Source: Haloquadratum walsbyi C23 (lineage in GTDB: Archaea > Halobacteriota > Halobacteria > Halobacteriales > Haloferacaceae). From it: DNA of 32,000 nucleotides. The position numbers and the translations under genes are program-made. The stretch is taken from NCBI RefSeq assembly GCF_000237865.1, contig NC_017459.1, forward strand, positions 150,001 through 182,000. Direction: 5' to 3'. The notes under the pieces were generated by a model. The model saw nothing but the letters and a program-made list of their open reading frames with translations, was not told where the DNA came from and searched no databases. This document shows, one piece after another, positions 3,614-28,270 of this stretch (its first letter is position 1; each line of letters opens with the position of its first letter).

Positions 3614-3880
3614 ATGAGCACAACTGCAACACCCTCCACAAACGCGGACGAGGATCGATCAAAAGAAGAGCGTCTGAAGAACTATCTTGTTTCGAAGGCA
3701 CAAGATGGTGAGATGTACTTTAAATCGAAGTTCATCGCTGATGAGGTTGGACTTTCAGCGAAAGAAATTGGTGCACTCATGGTCAAACTTCGTGACTCCG
3801 CAACTGAATTGAGTGTTGAGAAGTGGTCATACACCAGTGCAACTACCTGGCGCGTTGAAACCACCACTGAAGTCGCGTAA
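3614..3880 (+). CDS. Small acidic hypothetical protein, possibly winged-helix DNA binding
   Basis: This is an 88-aa ORF with halophile-like acidic composition. The segment FIADEVGLSAKEIGALMVKL looks HTH-like. It is an isolated gene embedded in AT-rich spacers. Confidence 0.55.
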   Translation: MSTTATPSTNADEDRSKEERLKNYLVSKAQDGEMYFKSKFIADEVGLSAKEIGALMVKLRDSATELSVEKWSYTSATTWRVETTTEVA

Positions 3881-4204
3881 ACTACCTCGGGGTCATAGCA
3901 TCCAGCTTATAATTCTGCAAATCTCTCTGATATATCATACATAACATACTGATCACACTCAATGATGTTTGCCAATAAAAACTATCCTCGGTTGAGTATC
4001 TCGAGTGTTTTCGTTAATCGAGTATACTAGTTTGATATACTCAAATCATCAGAAATATTACCAGTCAGATAATATAATACTAGATTCATGAATGGCTTGA
4101 TTCTATGCTGTATCATCAGCACAAAGTAGTCTTCCTGCCGCCAATTGTTTTAACGATAACATTAGTCAAGAGGTTTATTGGTCCCTATATCATATTTATC
4201 TTCA

Positions 4205-6616: not shown

Positions 6617-7015
6617 ATACAGTATCATCACATCTGTAGTAATACGCGTTTGTCATCTCGTGATATCATCTCAATCTGTGTGGATAATAAATCATCATAA
6701 GGGTAATAAAAAGCAATCTTGTGTCGAATGTTCTACTCAGACATCATGATCGAATCGGGTCGATGGCATAGCCCGTGAGATGCAAACGGATACTCAATCT
6801 CAGACATACCACACCACCTCTGGTGGTCTGACGCAGTACTCACAAACCACAACCGAGCCTCCGATAGTCTCAGCCAGGGTTCCGTTGGAGACGCACGGTT
6901 GGCGTGTTGTCCCGCGGAGAATCCTCGCTATTCAGAACGAGGAGGATATCAATCAGTATAACCTGTTGTTGAGGGTTTCGATGGGTTGATAATCAAGACA
7001 GCAAAGTACAAATAT

Positions 7016-12126: not shown

Positions 12127-12363
12127 TGACAAACTCAGACACTGACAGTAATGTACACGACGATGCCGACTCATAGACCCAATGAAATCACACTGAGTAG
12201 TACTCTTGAGCGGACTGTATCATATTCTAACTCGGACACTCACCGACTGGTAGGATATCATGATACGAACATTCCTCAAACGTATATACAAACATTATAA
12301 AATATCCTAAATTCATGTATTTGTCCCTAAATATTATGATAGTTGGGCAAAGATGCGGAATTA

Positions 12364-12522
12364 ATGCCGCACTGTGAGAACTGTGGTTCATTTGTCACCG
12401 CGGAGTATGTACGCGTGTTTGCCCCTGAAGAACTGGATCGTCCTCGTGTATGCCCAAATTGCGATGATAAAGTTCGAGACGGTGCTGACGTTCGTGAAGC
12501 GCGTGCAACGAGACACTCCTAA
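12364..12522 (+). CDS. Small zinc-finger protein (52 aa, two CxxC pairs)
   Basis: It falls below the track cutoff. Hand translation gives MPHCENCGSFVTAEYVRVFAPEELDRPRVCPNCDDKVRDGADVREARATRHS*. The listed ORF 12374..12649 lies in another frame and is non-acidic. Confidence 0.65.
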   Translation: MPHCENCGSFVTAEYVRVFAPEELDRPRVCPNCDDKVRDGADVREARATRHS

Positions 12523-12632
12523 CAGACATGATAACTGTGGAAAACATAGAAATCCTATCTCGCCTGCATATCATGCTTCACTCTCACGGTTATTGCGCGG
12601 TCTGGATAAAATAAAGATACCATTGCCATTGA

Positions 12633-12839
12633 TATCTTTCTCGGCGTGAGCGCGGAGGAATCCTGAACGTGAGTGTGAGTGGTGGGGATTGGAGGGTCGC
12701 AGTCCCACCATGCATCCAGACGGTGAAAATCGGGCGGTCATCGACTGCTTCCGATCATTGTTTGATTGCCCGAAGTGGCGAAGCCGCCATCGTCGGACAC
12801 GGCAGAATCACCCCGTTCTCGCCTGATTCTTATTTTTGA
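12633..12839 (+). repeat. Short copy (A) of a dispersed element family; it holds an open 68-codon frame with only GTG starts (12669/12675)
   Basis: 12651-12679 matches the reverse complement of 25924-25952 at 27/29 nt. 12778-12797 matches the reverse complement of 25458-25477 at 19/20 nt. A leading hairpin ctcggcg-tgag-cgcggag sits at 12640-12657. The ends are nested-complementary (gaatc/gattc, gaacg/cgttc, ggggatt/aatcacccc). It ends in a T5 run. Confidence 0.8.
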
Positions 12840-12969
12840 AGAGAGTTGTCTGCGAATTAATATCACGGATTGAAATCTCGGGTGATCAGTCGAACGTGGA
12901 ATGCTTCCGGATTGTCCAGACAGACTATTGAGTGATAAGCTTCACCTCTGTTGCCGTTTATCTATATAT

Positions 12970-14769
12970 ATGAGTTCGATTCCCGAACGAAACGAGATTG
13001 AGACCGAATATACCTGGGATCTTTCAGGTATCTATACTGACGCTGCGGAATGGGAATCAGCGTATGAGTCAGTTCAGGATCAACTGACAGATCTCAAAGA
13101 ATATGAAGGACATGTGACTGAGTCGCCGTCAACACTTCTGGAGTTGCTTGAGCAGCGCGAGGAGATATTCCGAACATTGGCAACGGTAAGCACATATGCG
13201 AATCTTCGCAGCGCTGAGGACACGCGTGATCAGGAATCTCAGGCTCGACAGTCGAAAGCTGAGTCGTTATCATCTCGCGCCCGCTCGGCAATTAGTTTCA
13301 TTGAGCCTGAATTGCAGGAGCTTGACAGCGAAGAAATAAGCTCATTCTGCGAACACGAACCGGCACTCAAGCAATATGAACATTTCTTCGATGATGTCCT
13401 TCGGGCAAAGCCACATACGCGATCTTCCGAGGTTGAGTCTGTGCTTGCAGATCTTGGTGAAATCGCGAGTTCACCGTCAGATATCTATGGAATGTTATCA
13501 AATGCCGACATGACATTCCCAACCGTTGATCATCCAGACCCTGGTGAGGATACAATTGAAATAACTCTTGGAAACTTCACAAAGCTACAAAAACATCCAG
13601 ACCGCGCATTTCGACAGACCGTTTACGAGCAGTTCTATGATGAGTGGAAGGATGTTCGGAATACAGTCGGAACCGCATTACAAAACAGCGTAAAGAAAGA
13701 TGTCAAATACGCCCGTGCCCGACGATATGAATCTGCCCGTGCTGCCTCACTTGATGGTCCAAATGTTCCTGTAACGGTATATGATACTCTGTGCGAGACC
13801 GTTCGAGATAATCTTGAGCATCTTCATCGTCATGCCCGACTAAAACAAGCAGCTCTTAATCTTAATGAACTTCGTCCCTGGGATTTTTACATCTCACTCA
13901 CCGGTGATGAGAGTCCTAAAATTCCATATGACCGTGCAACAACATATATTACTGATGCCGTTGCTCCACTTGGGTCGGAATATCAACAGCGTGTCGCTGA
14001 TGGGCTTGAATCTCGGTGGGTTGATGTCTATGAGAATCGCGGAAAACGATCTGGTGCGTTTTCCTCTGGAGCATATGATACGCAGCCATTTATTCTGATG
14101 AATTATCAAGATGATATTTCATCGATGTTTACTCTTGCACATGAACTCGGTCATTCAATGCACTCCGAGCTCGCGAAGAACGCCCAACCGTGGCAGTATG
14201 CTGATTACACAATATTTGTTGCTGAGGTAGCGTCGACAGTCAATGAAACGTTATTAACTAATCATTTGCTTGAAACGCTTGAGGATGACACGCTTCGTTT
14301 ACACATTCTTGATGAGTATCTTGAGCGTGTTCGCTCGACGCTTTACAGACAAACAATGTTTGCAGAATTTGAATCAACCATTCACGAAATAATCGAGGAG
14401 GGTGGCGCACTCACGCCTGATCGCTTTGATGAAATATATCGTGACTTGAAAGAAACATATTATCAACCAGCGGTACTTGATGACCGAATCGCTCGTGAGT
14501 GGATGCGTATTCCACATTTCTATTATTCGTTTTATGTCTATCAGTATGCAACCGGCATTTCAGCCGCTATTGCGATTGTTGATCAAATTGATACAGACGG
14601 AGAAGATGCGGCTGAAGACTATCGAAGTGCACTCGAACTTGGAGGCTCAGCATATCCAATCGATATTCTCCAAACAGCTGGTGTTGATATGACTGATGCG
14701 GCACCAATTGAATCTGCACTCACAGGATATGCCGACTATCTTGATCAGATGGAGGCGCTTATTGAGTAG
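12970..14769 (+). CDS. pepF: Oligoendopeptidase F (M3B family)
   Basis: It has an HELGHSMH zinc motif, about 600 aa, and N-terminal PERNEIETEYTWDLSGIY typical of PepF. The ATG is at 12970. Confidence 0.85.
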   Translation: MSSIPERNEIETEYTWDLSGIYTDAAEWESAYESVQDQLTDLKEYEGHVTESPSTLLELLEQREEIFRTLATVSTYANLRSAEDTRDQESQARQSKAESLSSRARSAISFIEPELQELDSEEISSFCEHEPALKQYEHFFDDVLRAKPHTRSSEVESVLADLGEIASSPSDIYGMLSNADMTFPTVDHPDPGEDTIEITLGNFTKLQKHPDRAFRQTVYEQFYDEWKDVRNTVGTALQNSVKKDVKYARARRYESARAASLDGPNVPVTVYDTLCETVRDNLEHLHRHARLKQAALNLNELRPWDFYISLTGDESPKIPYDRATTYITDAVAPLGSEYQQRVADGLESRWVDVYENRGKRSGAFSSGAYDTQPFILMNYQDDISSMFTLAHELGHSMHSELAKNAQPWQYADYTIFVAEVASTVNETLLTNHLLETLEDDTLRLHILDEYLERVRSTLYRQTMFAEFESTIHEIIEEGGALTPDRFDEIYRDLKETYYQPAVLDDRIAREWMRIPHFYYSFYVYQYATGISAAIAIVDQIDTDGEDAAEDYRSALELGGSAYPIDILQTAGVDMTDAAPIESALTGYADYLDQMEALIE

Positions 14770-14788
14770 GCGTTCGTAGCTATACTTG

Positions 14789-15010
14789 ACGGAGAGGCGA
14801 TGTTGAGCAATTAGCACACTATGCTTGTGTGATATCCTCCTGATGAACGGCGGGGCTTTCCCGCACGGTCGATCCGTGCTAGTTTGGAAACCTCGGGTTT
14901 GTCTCCTGTCGTGATACAGGGAGTGCCACACCCCGTTATCTCTATCCACGGTGGATTCGGGAATACTTTGCTTATTTTCTGACGCTTTCCACAGCGATCA
15001 ACTCGGCGGG
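14789..15010 (+). repeat. Probable diverged third copy (C) of the element family
   Basis: Colinear short matches support it. gggagtgccaca (14919-14930) equals the reverse complement of 25803-25814. The hairpin gcacgg-tcgat-ccgtgc (14863-14879) parallels the reverse complement of 25861-25880. caccccgtt (14929-14937) equals 12809-12817. A gattc..ttatttt tail resembles copy A. Each match is short, so the call is tentative. Confidence 0.4.
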
Positions 15011-15396
15011 AATACCGTCGAACGACCAGATACAACTCCTGATACTGTCCGTTATACCGGGCGGATGAACCGCTTCGATTGGCATTATAGACGGGTTGTA
15101 CCTCTAAACATACTGGTGACGGCAGGGTTTTAGAGTCTGCATTCAGTATAAGTAGATTCTGCAGACGTTGTGGAACATTGATACAATATCAAGTCGGGTG
15201 ACACGTGGTCTGTGTGTCTGAACCGGGGGAAGACCCCGGAAGGGTGGGTATGGACCAGTACTTTGTCTAGCCCGATATTGTTCGACGAGGTAGTGTTCGG
15301 AATCTCAGTGCAACTCAATGTGAGCAAAAATATAAGATATCGCTCATCTGTAACGATGAGTACTTTTTTAGGACGTAATTTGTAGCTAATCTCAAG

Positions 15397-15585: not shown

Positions 15586-15629
15586 ACTCCTCAATAAGTT
15601 CTCAGGAGCACTACACGCGGAGGAGGATG

Positions 15630-16574
15630 TCAATCAGTCTCGAAAGTATCTTCGAGTGCATTACTGACTATTTGACCCGGCGGACGATTTTCGACAGACG
15701 CTCGTCGTCGCAGTTCGCGATATAGTGGGATTGGCAATGAAAGTTCAATCGATCCAACAGTGATTCCCCGCTCAGCGAGTGCTTCAGCCGCGGTTGTATC
15801 ATTATCAACCTCACTTGCAATCCGTCGCACTTCACGAACAGTAAGATCAGCATCAATAACAGCCCACGCGAGATCAAGCCGATCAAGCCCTGAGACGCGC
15901 GCAATATGTTTTGCGGCTGTTGGCGCGATATCACCGCGAGCAACATGGCGTCTAATCGCCTGTGGAAGGTCATGCACTCGTGCCCACTTTCGCACAAAAG
16001 AGATTGAAACATCACCACCTGCACGTTCCACCGCTTGCTTATATGACCCAACGCCTCTTACAAGGGCAGCACACGCAGCGGCTCCGCGAAGAATATACAC
16101 ATTGTCATCAGCACCAACAGTGTTCTCAGAAAATGCCCGTACGGTCTGTGCAGCCGATGTAATACTTGCTGGGTCTGTCGGGTCAAATTCAACTGCCTCG
16201 CGTGCCCGCTGTCCTGTGATAGCCGGGTCAGACCGAACAACTGGTTCGCCAACAGGCTCCTCACGATCCGCTGGTGGACGAACTGAGGGGTCTCCGCCGT
16301 CGCTGCGAAGTTGAGTAAAACTTGGTGCAGAATCATCATTATCAATATTACTGTTATTATGTGTCATAGTGAGGCTAATATTAGTATCAGTGTCAGTGTC
16401 AGTGATAGTGATTAAACAAGTGGCTTGAATTTTCGTCTCATCCGACTCAGGTCCAACGTCGATATTGGTATCAATATCGCTGTTTATGTCGAACTCTCGT
16501 TCCGAACGATGTCTCGACACTGAATCCAGCCGGTTGCTAGGTTTCCCACTAGAGTCATAATTATCCTCACTCAT
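15630..16574 (-). CDS. Acidic hypothetical protein: disordered D/T/N-rich N-terminal half, ParB/KorB-like HTH, C-terminal ribbon-helix-helix-like tail
   Basis: VSISFVRKWARVHDLPQAIRRHVARGDIAPTAAKHIARV resembles a ParB-type HTH. IELSLPIPLYRELRRRASVENRPPGQIVSNALEDTF resembles a CopG/Arc RHH. I start at the ATG at 16574 (MSEDNYD). The track start at 16670 adds a basic stretch overlapping the upstream gene. Confidence 0.6.
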   Translation of the reverse strand: MSEDNYDSSGKPSNRLDSVSRHRSEREFDINSDIDTNIDVGPESDETKIQATCLITITDTDTDTNISLTMTHNNSNIDNDDSAPSFTQLRSDGGDPSVRPPADREEPVGEPVVRSDPAITGQRAREAVEFDPTDPASITSAAQTVRAFSENTVGADDNVYILRGAAACAALVRGVGSYKQAVERAGGDVSISFVRKWARVHDLPQAIRRHVARGDIAPTAAKHIARVSGLDRLDLAWAVIDADLTVREVRRIASEVDNDTTAAEALAERGITVGSIELSLPIPLYRELRRRASVENRPPGQIVSNALEDTFETD

Positions 16575-16627
16575 CTCGTATATTGATAATCTGGCATCGG
16601 GTAAAAGTTCCACCCCGCTTCTGCCTG

Positions 16628-16852
16628 TCAATCTCGACTCTCTGAGAGGTGTTCCCAGATTTCTGTGCATCCAGCACCATCAGCAAGATCATCGAGGTGA
16701 CTACTCTCGTCATTTGATGTAGATGCAGCGTCAGATGAAGCAGTGTCAACGTTTGATTCCTCACTCTCTATATCCTGTTCGTCGCTGTCGATGCGTTGCT
16801 CCGGGTCAATAGCATCGATCTGGCGATCACTATCACTGCTTACACCCGTCAT
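16628..16852 (-). CDS. Very acidic 74-aa hypothetical protein
   Basis: The composition is extremely D/E/S-rich, with a distinctive C-terminus GAGCTEIWEHLSESRD. Its ATG overlaps the stop of the upstream ORF (ATGA, 16849-16852), which suggests translational coupling. Confidence 0.55.
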   Translation of the reverse strand: MTGVSSDSDRQIDAIDPEQRIDSDEQDIESEESNVDTASSDAASTSNDESSHLDDLADGAGCTEIWEHLSESRD

Positions 16853-19444: not shown

Positions 19445-19449
19445 CACGA

Positions 19450-19749
19450 ATGAGTGATCGACTCCTCCGCGTGAACGCATACACAACACTCGACCTCGCC
19501 GATGTCCGTGCCCGTGGACATGACTTTGACGTAAATACGCTTGGCGTTGTAAACGTTACCGCGCCACGAAAAAACCCGGATCATGTGACGCTTCAGGTTG
19601 AAATTGATCATACAACTGTTGAAATGCTTCCTGCCCATGCCGATGAAGTCACACTGTCAGCCTCAGAAGCTCGCACAATTGCTGATGATTTACACTCATA
19701 CGCTGATCGCGTTGAGAACGCACAATCATCGGGCTCAGATGACGCATAA
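19450..19749 (+). CDS. 99-aa acidic hypothetical protein coupled to nirA
   Basis: It starts 5 nt after the nirA stop and has an acidic, halophile-like composition. I recognise no motif. Confidence 0.55.
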   Translation: MSDRLLRVNAYTTLDLADVRARGHDFDVNTLGVVNVTAPRKNPDHVTLQVEIDHTTVEMLPAHADEVTLSASEARTIADDLHSYADRVENAQSSGSDDA

Positions 19750-25158: not shown

Positions 25159-25346
25159 GTGATATTGTCACTGTGCAATCAACGGATAGGTTTTGGGGGA
25201 GCGCATTTTATGTGCACACATAGATCATTTAATTATTATCGTTTAAGAAAAAACTGCCAATCTCAGTCGCTATGAGAGATTATACAGGGTCAAGGAGAAT
25301 ACCTGCGGGTTCAGCCGCAGGATAAATCCGACACCCCGGAGGAAAT

Positions 25347-25965
25347 CTACGCTGCAATAGCCACGCTCAGATTTGGGACTCCGGAGCTTGAACTGACAGG
25401 CAGTCCCATATTTATGTAGGAATCAGATCGGGAACAGGGCAGGGCGATTCCGGTCACTCCGACGATGGCTGCTTCGCAACCCCAAGCAATGATAGTGATT
25501 AGTTTGAATAGTTTCACTGACGGTGTCGAATGATGCGGATTCAGCGGCTCCCATCGCCGGCACCGATAATCACGGCGGTAAAGACTTGCACGAATCACTA
25601 TGAGACAGGAATCGGAACCAGTCAGGCGAACGGTCGGTTCATATAATATACTGAGCCGATGCAGATGCAGATGCAGTGCCCGACTGCCTGACAACACCGC
25701 AGAAAGCAACTTCGAGTCCACCGAAGTCTGCCGAACTCCCCAAGGTAAAATCAACTCCGGGAGTCCGGACACGATGGAGGATAGGAATACCGGGGGCTGA
25801 GATGTGGCACTCCCAGCGCTCCCAGCAGTCCCACTCGACTCGCCACAGTCCGTGAACCCCACACGGATTCTCACCGTGCCGGGGTTCGGTGGAACTGCAA
25901 CCCTGAAATCTCCATCATTCACGCTCACACTCACGCTCAAGATTCCTCCGCGTTTACGTGGAGGA
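25347..25965 (-). repeat. Long copy (B) of the dispersed element family; it contains a 197-codon non-acidic ORF (TTG/GTG start)
   Basis: Its 5' and 3' blocks match copy A (see 12633-12839). The leading hairpin cctccacg-taaa-cgcggagg is at 25945-25964. Its 3' module is duplicated internally (ggagtgccaca..gtattcctatcc versus ggagtgaccgg..tgattcctacat). A (GATGCA)3 microsatellite lies at 25658-25675. Confidence 0.8.
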
Positions 25966-25998
25966 GAATGTCAATGGGTGATTCAATATAATTTACTT

Positions 25999-27231
25999 TC
26001 AGATTGATATTTCTTGCCCAAGCGTCGGTGCTGTGGCATCGAATTCACTCGCATTCAATTCATCAGCAAATCGCTGACAGCGATCACCATGATTAATGAG
26101 CACTCTCGTATCTTTATACTCATTAAGAAGCTCCATGAGACCATCCTTATCTGCATGTGCAGAGAAATCATACCATTCAACCTGTGCGCTAATCGGCATT
26201 ATACGATCGTTTATTTCAGCACGACCAGTCTCCAGAAGTGACCGACCAGGCGTTCCCTCGACCTGATATCCTGTAAGCGTAATCTTGTTTGTTGGATTTG
26301 ACCGAATCTCGGGAATATATGTCATTGCAGGACCGCCAGATAGCATTCCGCTTGTTGTCACAATAACCGTATTTTGTTCTGCGATTCGTTTCCGCTGACC
26401 ATCCCGACCAGTGACAAATCGAGCGTTCGATTTCGCATGCCCGAGTGCCTCCTCACCCCGAACAAACTGTGGGTATTCTTTGAGCATCTTTGTTACTTGT
26501 TTTCCCATTCCATCAACATAGCAGTCAATATTGTTTGCTGCACACACGAGTAACAATTCTTGTGTTCGTCCAATTGCGAATGCAGGAACGATAACGGTGC
26601 CACCTTGCCACATGGTTGTTCGAACACTCTCAACGAATCGGGTTTCAATTTGCTTTCGTGGGTCATGTTGAACGTCTGAATAAGTGCTTTCACAGATGAC
26701 AACGTCTGCCTCAGGGCGTGCTGTTGAGGCTGAGACGAGCCGTTGATTCTCCGTATGAAAATCAGCGGTGTAAAATAACCGTGTGTCACCATCATCAATG
26801 AGCACATGCGCACTTCCAGGAATATGACCGGCGTTATAGAATGTGATTGAATGATCAGCAACATCGAACGTTTCTCGATATCCATGTGTCTCTGAAACTT
26901 GTGTGACGCGATGAAGTTCCTCTTGTGTGAAAGGGCAATCATACGTCCCACCATGAAGTTTGAGCGTATCACGAGCCAAGGTTAATGCCAATTCTTGTGT
27001 TGGGGCAGTCCAGTGAATCGGCGGTCTGCGGTCTCCGGAAAGCAATGATGGAATAGCACCAACATGATCAAGATGACCGTGACTGACAACAACGGCGTCT
27101 GGACGGGGTGTTTCAATTGGAAACTGTGGCGGATTCCCAGTCAGCATCCCATAATCAAGAAGCAATCGATCATTAATCAGGATGGCACTTCGACCGACCT
27201 CCTCTGCACCACCTAAAAACCGAATATCCAT
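25999..27231 (-). CDS. Beta-CASP family metallo-beta-lactamase ribonuclease (aCPSF2-like, no KH domains)
   Basis: VVSHGHLDHVGA (HxHxDH), AFAIGRTQELL, FSAHADKDGL and INHGD, about 410 aa long. Confidence 0.8.
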   Translation of the reverse strand: MDIRFLGGAEEVGRSAILINDRLLLDYGMLTGNPPQFPIETPRPDAVVVSHGHLDHVGAIPSLLSGDRRPPIHWTAPTQELALTLARDTLKLHGGTYDCPFTQEELHRVTQVSETHGYRETFDVADHSITFYNAGHIPGSAHVLIDDGDTRLFYTADFHTENQRLVSASTARPEADVVICESTYSDVQHDPRKQIETRFVESVRTTMWQGGTVIVPAFAIGRTQELLLVCAANNIDCYVDGMGKQVTKMLKEYPQFVRGEEALGHAKSNARFVTGRDGQRKRIAEQNTVIVTTSGMLSGGPAMTYIPEIRSNPTNKITLTGYQVEGTPGRSLLETGRAEINDRIMPISAQVEWYDFSAHADKDGLMELLNEYKDTRVLINHGDRCQRFADELNASEFDATAPTLGQEISI

Positions 27232-27334: not shown

Positions 27335-28186
27335 ATGCAACGACGTGCTGCGGCAGTATATGTCGCACTATTCATTATCGTTGGTGCGGGTGCTTACTCG
27401 CTCATCGCGACAGCAGAAGCGCCGCATGTCGAGTTTGAGGATCCAACATACGAACTTAGCTCTAGCGACCAGTTTGAGCTTGGTGGACAAACATACACCG
27501 TTGCATCAATCTCAACGATGGAGCAAGGCGGCGACCATGGGGGAACAGCAACAACAGTAACACAGGGTGCTATTCAGTATACTAACGAATCTGCACAGTA
27601 CGCCGCTTCATTCGAGAATAATTCGACGCAGACCGTTGATCAACAACAATGGCAAGTACTCGTTGACCGCAATGGTGATGATCCAACGCGCTTGACGTTC
27701 CGTGAGTCAATCAATCAAACAGCGATCCTCGAAGCAGATCCAAACGTAAGTACTGAGACAGTCACTCAAGATAGCGAAGAATATGTTGTCCGTAATGGTA
27801 ACGAACTTATTCCAGCTGCTGAATATTTCCCTGAGCCGGAAACACAGTCGTACGCAGAGGGTGACACACTTGCGTATCAGGGCAATACAACGACTATCAA
27901 GACGGTGACGAATGAAAGTATTCAGCTCGTATGGACTGCCCCACGAACAAATACAATTGATGTTGGGCATAATGATAATATCACTGTCGGTGATGAAACA
28001 TATCTTGCGCATTTCCCCAGTGATTCAACGCTGCAACTTACACAGAATTTCGAGAGTTACCAACAACAAAAAGCAGCTATGGAGCGGTATCAAACACAGA
28101 AGAATGGATTGTGGGGCGTCTCAATTGCATCCGGACTTACTGTGGTTTTCTTAATTGGATTTGCCTATCTCCCCTCTCGGTACTAA
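27335..28186 (+). CDS. Hypothetical exported protein with an N-terminal RR/hydrophobic signal-like segment and a C-terminal TM anchor
   Basis: It has MQRRAAAVYVALFIIVGAGAYSLIATAEAP, an acidic T/Q/N-rich body, and C-terminal GLWGVSIASGLTVVFLIGFAYLPSRY. Confidence 0.6.
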   Translation: MQRRAAAVYVALFIIVGAGAYSLIATAEAPHVEFEDPTYELSSSDQFELGGQTYTVASISTMEQGGDHGGTATTVTQGAIQYTNESAQYAASFENNSTQTVDQQQWQVLVDRNGDDPTRLTFRESINQTAILEADPNVSTETVTQDSEEYVVRNGNELIPAAEYFPEPETQSYAEGDTLAYQGNTTTIKTVTNESIQLVWTAPRTNTIDVGHNDNITVGDETYLAHFPSDSTLQLTQNFESYQQQKAAMERYQTQKNGLWGVSIASGLTVVFLIGFAYLPSRY

Positions 28187-28235
28187 CATTCACCACCACG
28201 CTGATACCGATATCTACAGATTAACAGGCAGAGTG

Positions 28236-28270
28236 CCTCGGGGCTTGACCCCGAGGTACTTCACTTTTTT
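28236..28270 (+). terminator. Stem-loop plus T6 run downstream of the 27335 gene
   Basis: cctcgggg-cttga-ccccgagg forms a perfect 8-bp stem at 28236-28256, followed by tttttt at 28265-28270. Confidence 0.6.

Follow-up and report, generated by a model that had tools for sequence, protein, structure and literature searches.

The 32,000-nt stretch of the Haloquadratum walsbyi C23 genome analyzed here (contig NC_017459.1, positions 150,001 to 182,000 of the forward strand; hereafter the window, whose own numbering we use) contains two related intergenic elements, copy A and copy B. Both are very probably palindrome-associated transposable elements (PATEs), i.e., gene-less derivatives of TnpB-encoding, IS1341-type insertion sequences (ISs) of the IS200/IS605 family, belonging to the HqIRS56-type group and presumably mobilized in trans by TnpA. 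They are not a new family; the element class was already catalogued in H. walsbyi in 2011. A preliminary description of the two loci had proposed a dispersed family of non-coding mobile elements with full and deletion forms, intergenic positions, and terminal hairpins, and that picture stands except for the limits and the orientation it gave to the copies. It had also been unable to assign the family to any known RNA or IS. An Rfam scan was indeed empty, but the ends match catalogued HqIRS56 and ISHwa21 ends, and since that description had itself named a match to catalogued IS ends as the refutation of novelty, the claim of novelty falls.

Ends and placement among the PATEs

PATEs were defined in H. 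walsbyi by Dyall-Smith et al. in 2011 (PMC3119063). They lack inverted terminal repeats, carry near-terminal palindromes, do not duplicate their target, are smaller than a transposase would need, and have ends related to those of IS605-type transposons; the H. walsbyi genome holds about 180-190 copies (PMC3119063). The HqIRS56-type group comprises HqIRS56-70, which are 466-688 bp long and number about 80 per genome (Table S8, PMC3119063). HqIRS56 itself is printed with TTATA followed by the 5' end of the element and with a 3' end of ...GGGATTCCTCCGCGTGAACCCGGAGGAGGATGTCAA, which is nearly the 3' end of ISHwa21 (Table S9, PMC3119063). Copy B is preceded by TTATA and closes with ...AGATTCCTCCGCGTTTACGTGGAGGAGAATGTCAA. 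The 3' ends printed for HqIRS56 and ISHwa21 (Table S9, PMC3119063) can be aligned with that of copy B, GATTCCTCCGCGTTTACGTGGAGGAGAATGTCAA, and the TTATA target and length of copy B are within the range of HqIRS56-type PATEs (Table S8, PMC3119063). In the alignment, a copy from Halomicrobium (L030) joins a body of the A/B type to an exact HqIRS56-type left end. The placement in this group thus goes by target, 3' end, and length, the published ends being those of five homogeneous PATEs only. Because the published HqIRS56 and ISHwa21 3' ends match that of copy B, the canonical orientation is the plus strand for B and the minus strand for A. The principal features are as follows.

25285 to 25974, plus strand: copy B, a full-length HqIRS56-type PATE of 690 nt (580 nt without its nested insert), set by sharp similarity limits against 20+ copies
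about 12629 to 12962, minus strand: copy A, a decayed PATE of about 334 nt with an internal deletion, from the nhmmer profile and alignment
25280 to 25284, plus strand: TTATA target, or transposon-adjacent motif, directly 5' of the left end of copy B
25302 to 25321, plus strand: left-end subterminal hairpin CCTGCGGG-TTCAG-CCGCAGG, with compensatory changes (helix 2)
25945 to 25964, plus strand: subterminal hairpin of the right end, CCTCCGCG-TTTA-CGTGGAGG, with covariation (helix 26); the terminus AGAATGTCAA comes next (25965-25974)
25706 to 25974, plus strand: 3' domain, homologous to the omegaRNA region, from profile matches to TnpB elements and a fold z-score of -3.96

Similarity among 20+ copies begins directly after TTATA and stops at ...GGAGGAGGATGTCAA, with unrelated flanks on both sides; the common family terminus reads ...GGATGTCAA. 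TTATA stands before the element in 22 of the 24 listed left junctions, four TnpB-encoding elements included, and the right flanks resemble neither each other nor TTATA. Full copies measure 515-614 nt and have no transposase and no conserved open reading frame (ORF). Subterminal hairpins are present at both ends and show compensatory changes across copies. On the left, pair 24-33 is GC in 11 copies, CG in 5, and AU in 1, and pair 21-36 is GC in 15 and CG in 2; on the right, an example is pair 628-633 (GC in 22, CG in 3). The right hairpin and terminus of copy B match the published 3' ends of ISHwa21 and HqIRS56. No target duplication was seen in the junctions compared, and there are no terminal inverted repeats of the kind found in MITEs (small transposable elements bounded by inverted repeats), as had been suggested: the 5' CAGRRTCAAGGAG... 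and the 3' ...GGAGGAGGATGTCAA are not reverse complements in any copy.

The sequence matches through which A and B were first linked are exact as described. For 12651-12679 against 25924-25952, a 23-nt degenerate pattern matched 12651-12673 (plus) and 25930-25952 (minus) with 0 mismatches, with 0 expected in 100 shuffles. The match of 12778-12797 to 25458-25477 fared alike in the pattern test, as did the colinear AGGGTYGCAGTYCCACC block, and a repeat search paired the two loci through inverted arms, one of 54 nt (81%) and one of 49 nt (73%). The limits, in turn, had to be redrawn: B is 25285-25974 rather than 25347-25965, and A about 12629-12962 rather than 12633-12839. The hairpin said to open each copy is present, but it is the right-end hairpin, the elements having been read backwards.

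The family extends well beyond H. walsbyi, with copies in at least 12 haloarchaeal genera. Copies are 70-82% identical, within one genome and across genera alike. The DNA around three relatives of an ORF called in copy B contains the same ~550-600-nt sequence in unrelated gene neighborhoods. When a profile built from 20 other copies was run with nhmmer, copy B was matched at E 2e-99 and 4e-44. A phage collection searched with the element gave no match, and the A/B element is therefore not the PATE reported in virus HRTV-DL1. No tRNA or tmRNA was found in the window, and an Rfam scan of 25200-26050 at E up to 10 returned noise only.

TnpB-encoding relatives and the guide-RNA question

In IS200/IS605 elements, the 3' end of tnpB and the right end of the element encode an omegaRNA (reRNA) that guides TnpB, reportedly described in 2021 by Karvelis and by Altae-Tran. 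When 69 nt from the family's 3' end served as the query, matches appeared at many haloarchaeal plasmid loci annotated as "RNA-guided endonuclease TnpB family protein." In all six TnpB elements examined, tnpB lies on the same strand and its stop codon falls 48-50 nt before the common GTCAA terminus; four of the six are preceded by TTATA. Three of them (L039, L040, and L041) were scanned with the PATE profile, which matched from positions 274, 332, and 344, respectively, to 519 (E 8e-20, 2e-20, and 3e-13), and each time the match is the last ~180-245 nt of the element, closing 48 nt beyond the tnpB stop codon. The PATE left end was matched upstream of tnpB in two of the three, L039 and L041 (E 1e-8 and 2e-6), with homologous hairpins. 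By tblastn, the last ~80 TnpB residues are weakly placed on PATE nt ~209-466 (E 5e-4), so the PATE body looks like a decayed tnpB 3' end. No plasmid-borne TnpB-encoding relative carries the whole PATE body; what they have in common with PATEs is limited to the ends and the 3' ~180-245 nt. TnpB genes on enterobacterial (Providencia alcalifaciens) plasmids also match the right-end hairpin and terminus (query 27-69, 82%, E 0.1), possibly through a very widely conserved right-end module or by chance.

The predicted fold of 26 copies has 154 pairs, of which 91.4% are paired across the copies. Double-sided changes occur at 35 pairs, compared with 20.2 +/- 3.1 in column shuffles (none of 500 reached 35) and 14-21 in slid controls. 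The best-supported helices are 4, 14/15, 19, and 25 in the interior and the two hairpins at the ends; we give no weight to the long-range helices 3, 6, 10, 12, and 13, which are invariant and show no covariation. G-U pairs outnumber A-C pairs by 266 to 129 on the canonical strand, which is mild support because the fold was predicted on that strand. The 3' domain of copy B folds with z = -3.96. When folded one sequence at a time, two of three PATE copies and three TnpB elements agree in the order of their stems: first an ACUCC/GGAGU stem that encloses a hairpin, next a hairpin whose loop is UUGGCAC, then a long hairpin in three tiers, a small hairpin, and finally the right-end hairpin. The paired positions of these stems are filled by different bases in PATEs and in TnpB elements. 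The 3' domain thus has the position of an omegaRNA, as it occupies the element's 3' end, points the same way as tnpB, overlaps the right end, and forms a conserved multi-stem scaffold.

PATEs in general have been proposed to "often encode omegaRNAs" on which TnpB acts in trans (PMC10055086). We lean toward the view, which the fold and its position suggest, that the 3' domain would be an omegaRNA-type RNA taking its guide from the right flank and used in trans by TnpB. A bolder version appears unlikely to us: that the family is a ~520-590-nt structured RNA gene on transposon ends, selected for its structure across at least 12 haloarchaeal genera. If that were true, the gene would join the omegaRNA scaffold to a PATE-specific 5' domain of ~150 nt that is absent from the TnpB-encoding relatives. 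The family would then be either a hyperparasite borrowing the TnpA and TnpB of other elements or a guide RNA co-opted by the host, which might, for example, steer TnpB to the 3' ends of convergent neighbor genes with a guide antisense to them.

IS200/IS605 elements move by means of the Y1 transposase TnpA, through single-strand excision and insertion. By analogy, TnpA supplied in trans would excise the top strand of a PATE as single-stranded DNA via the two hairpins and would reinsert it 3' of TTATA. The conserved 3' domain may be transcribed from left to right as an omegaRNA-type guide RNA, whose last ~16-20 nt, the guide, would come from the right flank (25975 onward for copy B). A TnpB from another element would load this RNA and could cut empty TTATA-plus-flank sites, a step that would favor retention of the element.

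Several observations weigh against these elements being mobile PATEs with a guide RNA. Present activity is doubtful because the window contains no tnpA or tnpB, most tnpA and tnpB genes of H. walsbyi are reported as pseudogenes (PMC3119063), and the heterogeneous HqIRS56-type PATEs have few or no strain-specific insertions (PMC3119063). A search of metagenomes for the empty site of copy B gave 0 matches, against 7 occupied junctions in the control. As for the RNA, an Rfam 15 scan of the window and of L001-L003 at the gathering score gave 0 matches, HgcC (RF00062) and HEARO included; the G-U asymmetry is no more than 2:1 for a fold predicted on the favored strand; and none of the six TnpB elements examined has a counterpart of the PATE region from about nt 55 to about 210. 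The 3'-domain structure could also be partly inherited from the RNA that overlaps tnpB and not be under current selection.

The last point leads to the best-surviving alternative, in which A and B are PATEs but inert DNA fossils, their helices and internal conservation leftovers of a tnpB 3' end and its overlapping RNA that were spread horizontally, with no RNA made or used today. The weak alignment to the TnpB C-terminus fits this, as do the persistence of copy A despite the loss of half the scaffold, the splitting of copy B by one nested repeat (two in some population variants), the tnpA and tnpB pseudogenes, and the missing empty site. Against a fossil, copies with 70-82% identity, whether from one genome or from at least 12 genera, retain 91% of 154 pairs, 35 pairs showing double changes, well above the controls, and the scaffold preserves the stem order of TnpB elements through many substitutions. 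In addition, PATE-derived RNAs are expressed in other haloarchaea, namely in Halobacterium (PMC4615843) and in Halorubrum and its virus (PMC10544981). We regard the fossil reading as possible and somewhat unlikely.

Much less probable is the idea that A and B are free-standing structured non-coding RNA genes, paralogues with a cellular function and unrelated to transposition. Strong covariation over the whole length, wide haloarchaeal distribution, divergence within a genome equal to that between genera, and the lack of an Rfam match are all compatible with such genes. Against them stand the sharp TTATA and GTCAA ends in unrelated contexts, left and right ends that are those of TnpB-encoding ISs, a patchy, multi-copy, plasmid-rich distribution, and the frequency of truncated and deleted copies. 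Short, non-coding, multi-copy, and intergenic elements also recall classical MITEs, which a DDE transposase moves by way of their terminal inverted repeats, yet the termini are not inverted repeats (CAGGGTCAAGGAG... versus ...GGAGGAGAATGTCAA), no copy is flanked by a duplication, and the ends belong to IS200/IS605 elements, so that a MITE has a negligible chance of being the right answer.

Nor is it credible that the family encodes a protein, represented by a 197-aa minus-strand ORF in B and by a shorter version of 56 aa in A: in three blocks the differences between A and B do fall on third codon positions, and 29 similar ORFs are called as proteins in public data, but the aligned "proteins" switch frame relative to one another, 190 of 219 indels against other copies are not multiples of 3, the longest open frame varies in strand and frame between copies, the ORF reads through an insert private to copy B, its pI is 9.19 in an acidic proteome where those of neighboring genes are 4.4-5.3, it has no Pfam match, and conservation clusters in helices and is not periodic. 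The 197-aa "hypothetical protein" and its 29 database relatives are thus an annotation artifact. The PATE accounts for the space that separates the beta-CASP gene from the oxidoreductase gene. An 840-nt gap without an acidic ORF around B, as pointed out in the preliminary description, is present.

Individual copies, remnants, and distribution

The remaining features of copy B, and one further remnant in the window, are listed here.

25492 to 25601, no strand: nested 110-bp repeat resembling a small mobile repeat (SMR), with inverted ends ATAGTGATTAGT / ACGAATCACTAT, missing from other copies
25658 to 25676, plus strand: (GATGCA)3 microsatellite, with 1 to 4 units among aligned copies
25916 to 25939, plus strand: 12-nt tandem duplication CATTCACGCTCA / CACTCACGCTCA, differing in length among copies
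25347 to 25940, minus strand: spurious 197-aa ORF antisense to the element, its frame not conserved
15612 to 15633, plus strand: right-end remnant ...CACGCGGAGGAGGATGTCAA of the A/B end type (E 0.044), with half of the hairpin gone

Copy B was thought to duplicate its own 3' module, which amounts merely to the 12-nt tandem at 25916-25939; the (GATGCA)3 run, in contrast, is there as described. The inverted arms of the nested insert match at 11 of 12 positions. The insert has no counterpart in any other family copy, or in L042, a metagenome contig with the same locus; an 85% copy lies elsewhere (L002:62-163). It is flanked on both sides by the 4-nt ATGA, which may be a short duplication. SMRs as a class measure about 80-300 bp, have inverted terminal repeats unrelated to known transposons, do not duplicate their target, and favor PATEs and IS605-type elements. 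SMRs of ~110 bp preferentially target PATEs (PMC3119063). Copy B is old, apparently fixed in the population, and was later struck by this 110-bp, SMR-like repeat. In three variants of the B locus from the population, a second insert of ~110 nt, unrelated to the first, sits near 25641-25647, in the loop of an internal hairpin (L047:268-377, L049:10801-10910, and L050:13870-13979), i.e., a further polymorphic small-repeat insertion in the same PATE.

In L042 (2380-2966), a PATE without the nested repeat lies beside an identical beta-CASP protein. Its 5' ~190 nt are 85% identical to copy B, and its left flank holds Fer2 and PHO4 genes, not the oxidoreductase. This arrangement may stem from recombination between PATE copies or from an assembly chimera. 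Looking up the exact beta-CASP protein returned the same locus with the PATE and no clean empty site, and for none of the copies did an isogenic empty site turn up.

Copy A is an older copy that has lost ~190 profile positions, among them half of the guide-RNA scaffold, and the left hairpin, and it is almost certainly immobile. Profile positions 46-239 align with 12916-12728 (E 2e-24) and 429-519 with 12731-12629 (E 9e-15); positions 240-428 have been deleted, and the two parts meet near 12728-12731. Of the end hairpins, the left one is decayed and the right one lies at 12640-12657. Metagenome contig L050 contains this copy too. The difference between A and B had been put down to a loss of about 360 nt from A. 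It is real, but it is not a single deletion: ~250 nt are missing from A, and B has its private 110-bp insertion. The nested complementarity noted at the ends of A does appear in the predicted fold (z -2.8); the positions involved are not true ends, and the pairing is not kept in other copies.

On its left side, copy A stops ~8 nt short of the likely start of pepF (ATG at 12970; a start at 12901 would give an implausible N-terminus), and the pepF promoter would therefore lie within the decayed element. The real gene upstream of copy A is a 59-aa zinc-finger ORF (CxxC...CxxC) at 12343-12522 on the plus strand; a longer ORF in another frame, 12374-12649, runs into copy A and looks spurious. The pattern in which copies begin downstream of a same-strand gene does not hold up, as it comprises two cases and uses the wrong strand, and insertion at TTATA in AT-rich spacers explains it.

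The window, whose GC content is near 47%, contains at least four further IS605-type remnants besides A and B. The remnant at 15612-15633 supplies the TGA stop of a DUF7119 gene (15630-16670, minus strand). A published 52-bp, terminal-only HqIRS46 "core del" sequence (PMC3119063) is found identical at 28213-28264; on the plus strand it reads TCTAC followed by AGATTAACAGGCAGAGTGCCTCGGGGCTTGACCCCGAGGTACTTCAC and comes just after the ORF at 27335-28186. At 6909-6952 (plus strand), an ISHwa24-like, IS605-type right end, GGAGAATCCTCGCTATTCAGAACGAGGAGGATATCAA, lies in the spacer before the gene at 6986. An HqIRS46-like right-end fragment at 3877-3895 (minus strand; reverse complement TGACCCCGAGGTAGTTTAC) edges an AT-rich gap at 3900-4180 (GC 33%). 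Copy C (14770-15130), put forward as a probable third member, is not a detectable one, either with the family profile (best match 14907-14952, minus strand, at E 0.04) or with the published PATE ends. It shows a right-end-like motif at 14833-14952 (minus strand; reverse complement ...GGGAAAGCCCCGCCGTTCATCAGGAGGATATCAC) and is probably what decay has left of an IS605-type element or PATE of another type, outside the A/B family. A similarity at 19448-19473 falls within the start of a DUF6360 gene and was taken as chance.

Species-representative genomes were scanned with a pattern common to A and B, with the following matches.

Haloquadratum walsbyi J07HQW1: 5 copies
One Halobacteriales metagenome-assembled genome (MAG): 5 copies
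A Natribaculum plasmid: 2 copies
Natronomonas, Halorubrum, Salinarchaeum, and other haloarchaeal MAGs: further matches
Bacteria: 5 matches, without further similarity

A plasmid search adds Haloplanus, Natrinema, Halobacterium, Halostagnicola, Halomicrobium, and Natrialba, the DNA being unannotated in nearly all cases. Some copies have private additions, such as a (GCTGAG)n-like expansion in L001 (alignment columns 426-463), a hairpin-like insert of ~50 nt in L012 (205-255), and an insert of ~43 nt just before the right-end hairpin in two Natronomonas copies (L006 and L017).

Significance and comparison with known systems

The discovery value of these results is small: PATEs were defined in H. 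walsbyi in 2011, and a guide-RNA role has already been proposed for them. For specialists, the gain is a PATE family that is pan-haloarchaeal and has a full omegaRNA-like fold, on which the trans action of TnpB guide RNAs in archaea could be tested in a natural setting. Should the family prove to be a guide RNA that works in trans and has an additional 5' domain, this would be of moderate specialist interest.

The closest known relatives are the HqIRS56-type PATEs (HqIRS56-HqIRS70). The A/B family shares with them the TTATA target, the 3' end ...GATTCCTCCGCG-loop-CGCGGAGGAGGATGTCAA, and the length range of 466-688 bp. Other likenesses are the absence of inverted terminal repeats, target duplication, and transposase, the heterogeneity of copies, and the frequent ~110-bp SMR insertions and internal ("core") deletions. 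Copy B differs in its left end, which is of another type, AAGGAGAATACC-hairpin-GGATRAATCCGAC, and nearer to the left ends of HqIRS54 and ISHwa24. IS1341-type elements (ISHwa21, ISHwa24, and those on Halolamina, Haloarcula, Halarchaeum, Halobaculum, and Halogeometricum plasmids) have the same target, left-end hairpin module, and right end, and their last ~180-245 nt are homologous and have the same fold. In contrast to them, the PATEs lack the tnpB ORF (about 1.25-1.3 kb), have a 3' domain whose first stem holds a larger inner hairpin, and contain ~150 nt (about nt 55-210) without a detectable counterpart there.

The SMRs of H. walsbyi (HqIRS42, 43, and 55; ~103-122 bp) resemble the nested insert of copy B, compared by size and habit rather than by sequence, in that it is ~110 bp long, has inverted ends, lies within a PATE, and is polymorphic in the population; it differs in being internal and not in a near-terminal palindrome. 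The omegaRNAs or reRNAs of TnpB, including the sotRNAs of Halobacterium (PMC4615843, PMC10055086), share with the 3' domain a 3'-end position running into the right end, the orientation, a right-end hairpin with a UUYA-type loop, and a multi-stem scaffold, whereas the A/B family has no cognate TnpB in cis and is known here from sequence and predicted fold. Finally, REPINs with their RAYTs and the bacterial PATE-like elements (G. stearothermophilus; PMC10055086) are likewise gene-less, hairpin-bearing IS200/IS605 derivatives mobilized in trans. REPINs, however, are far shorter hairpin doublets that use a domesticated RAYT, whereas the A/B family retains a full-length guide-RNA scaffold.

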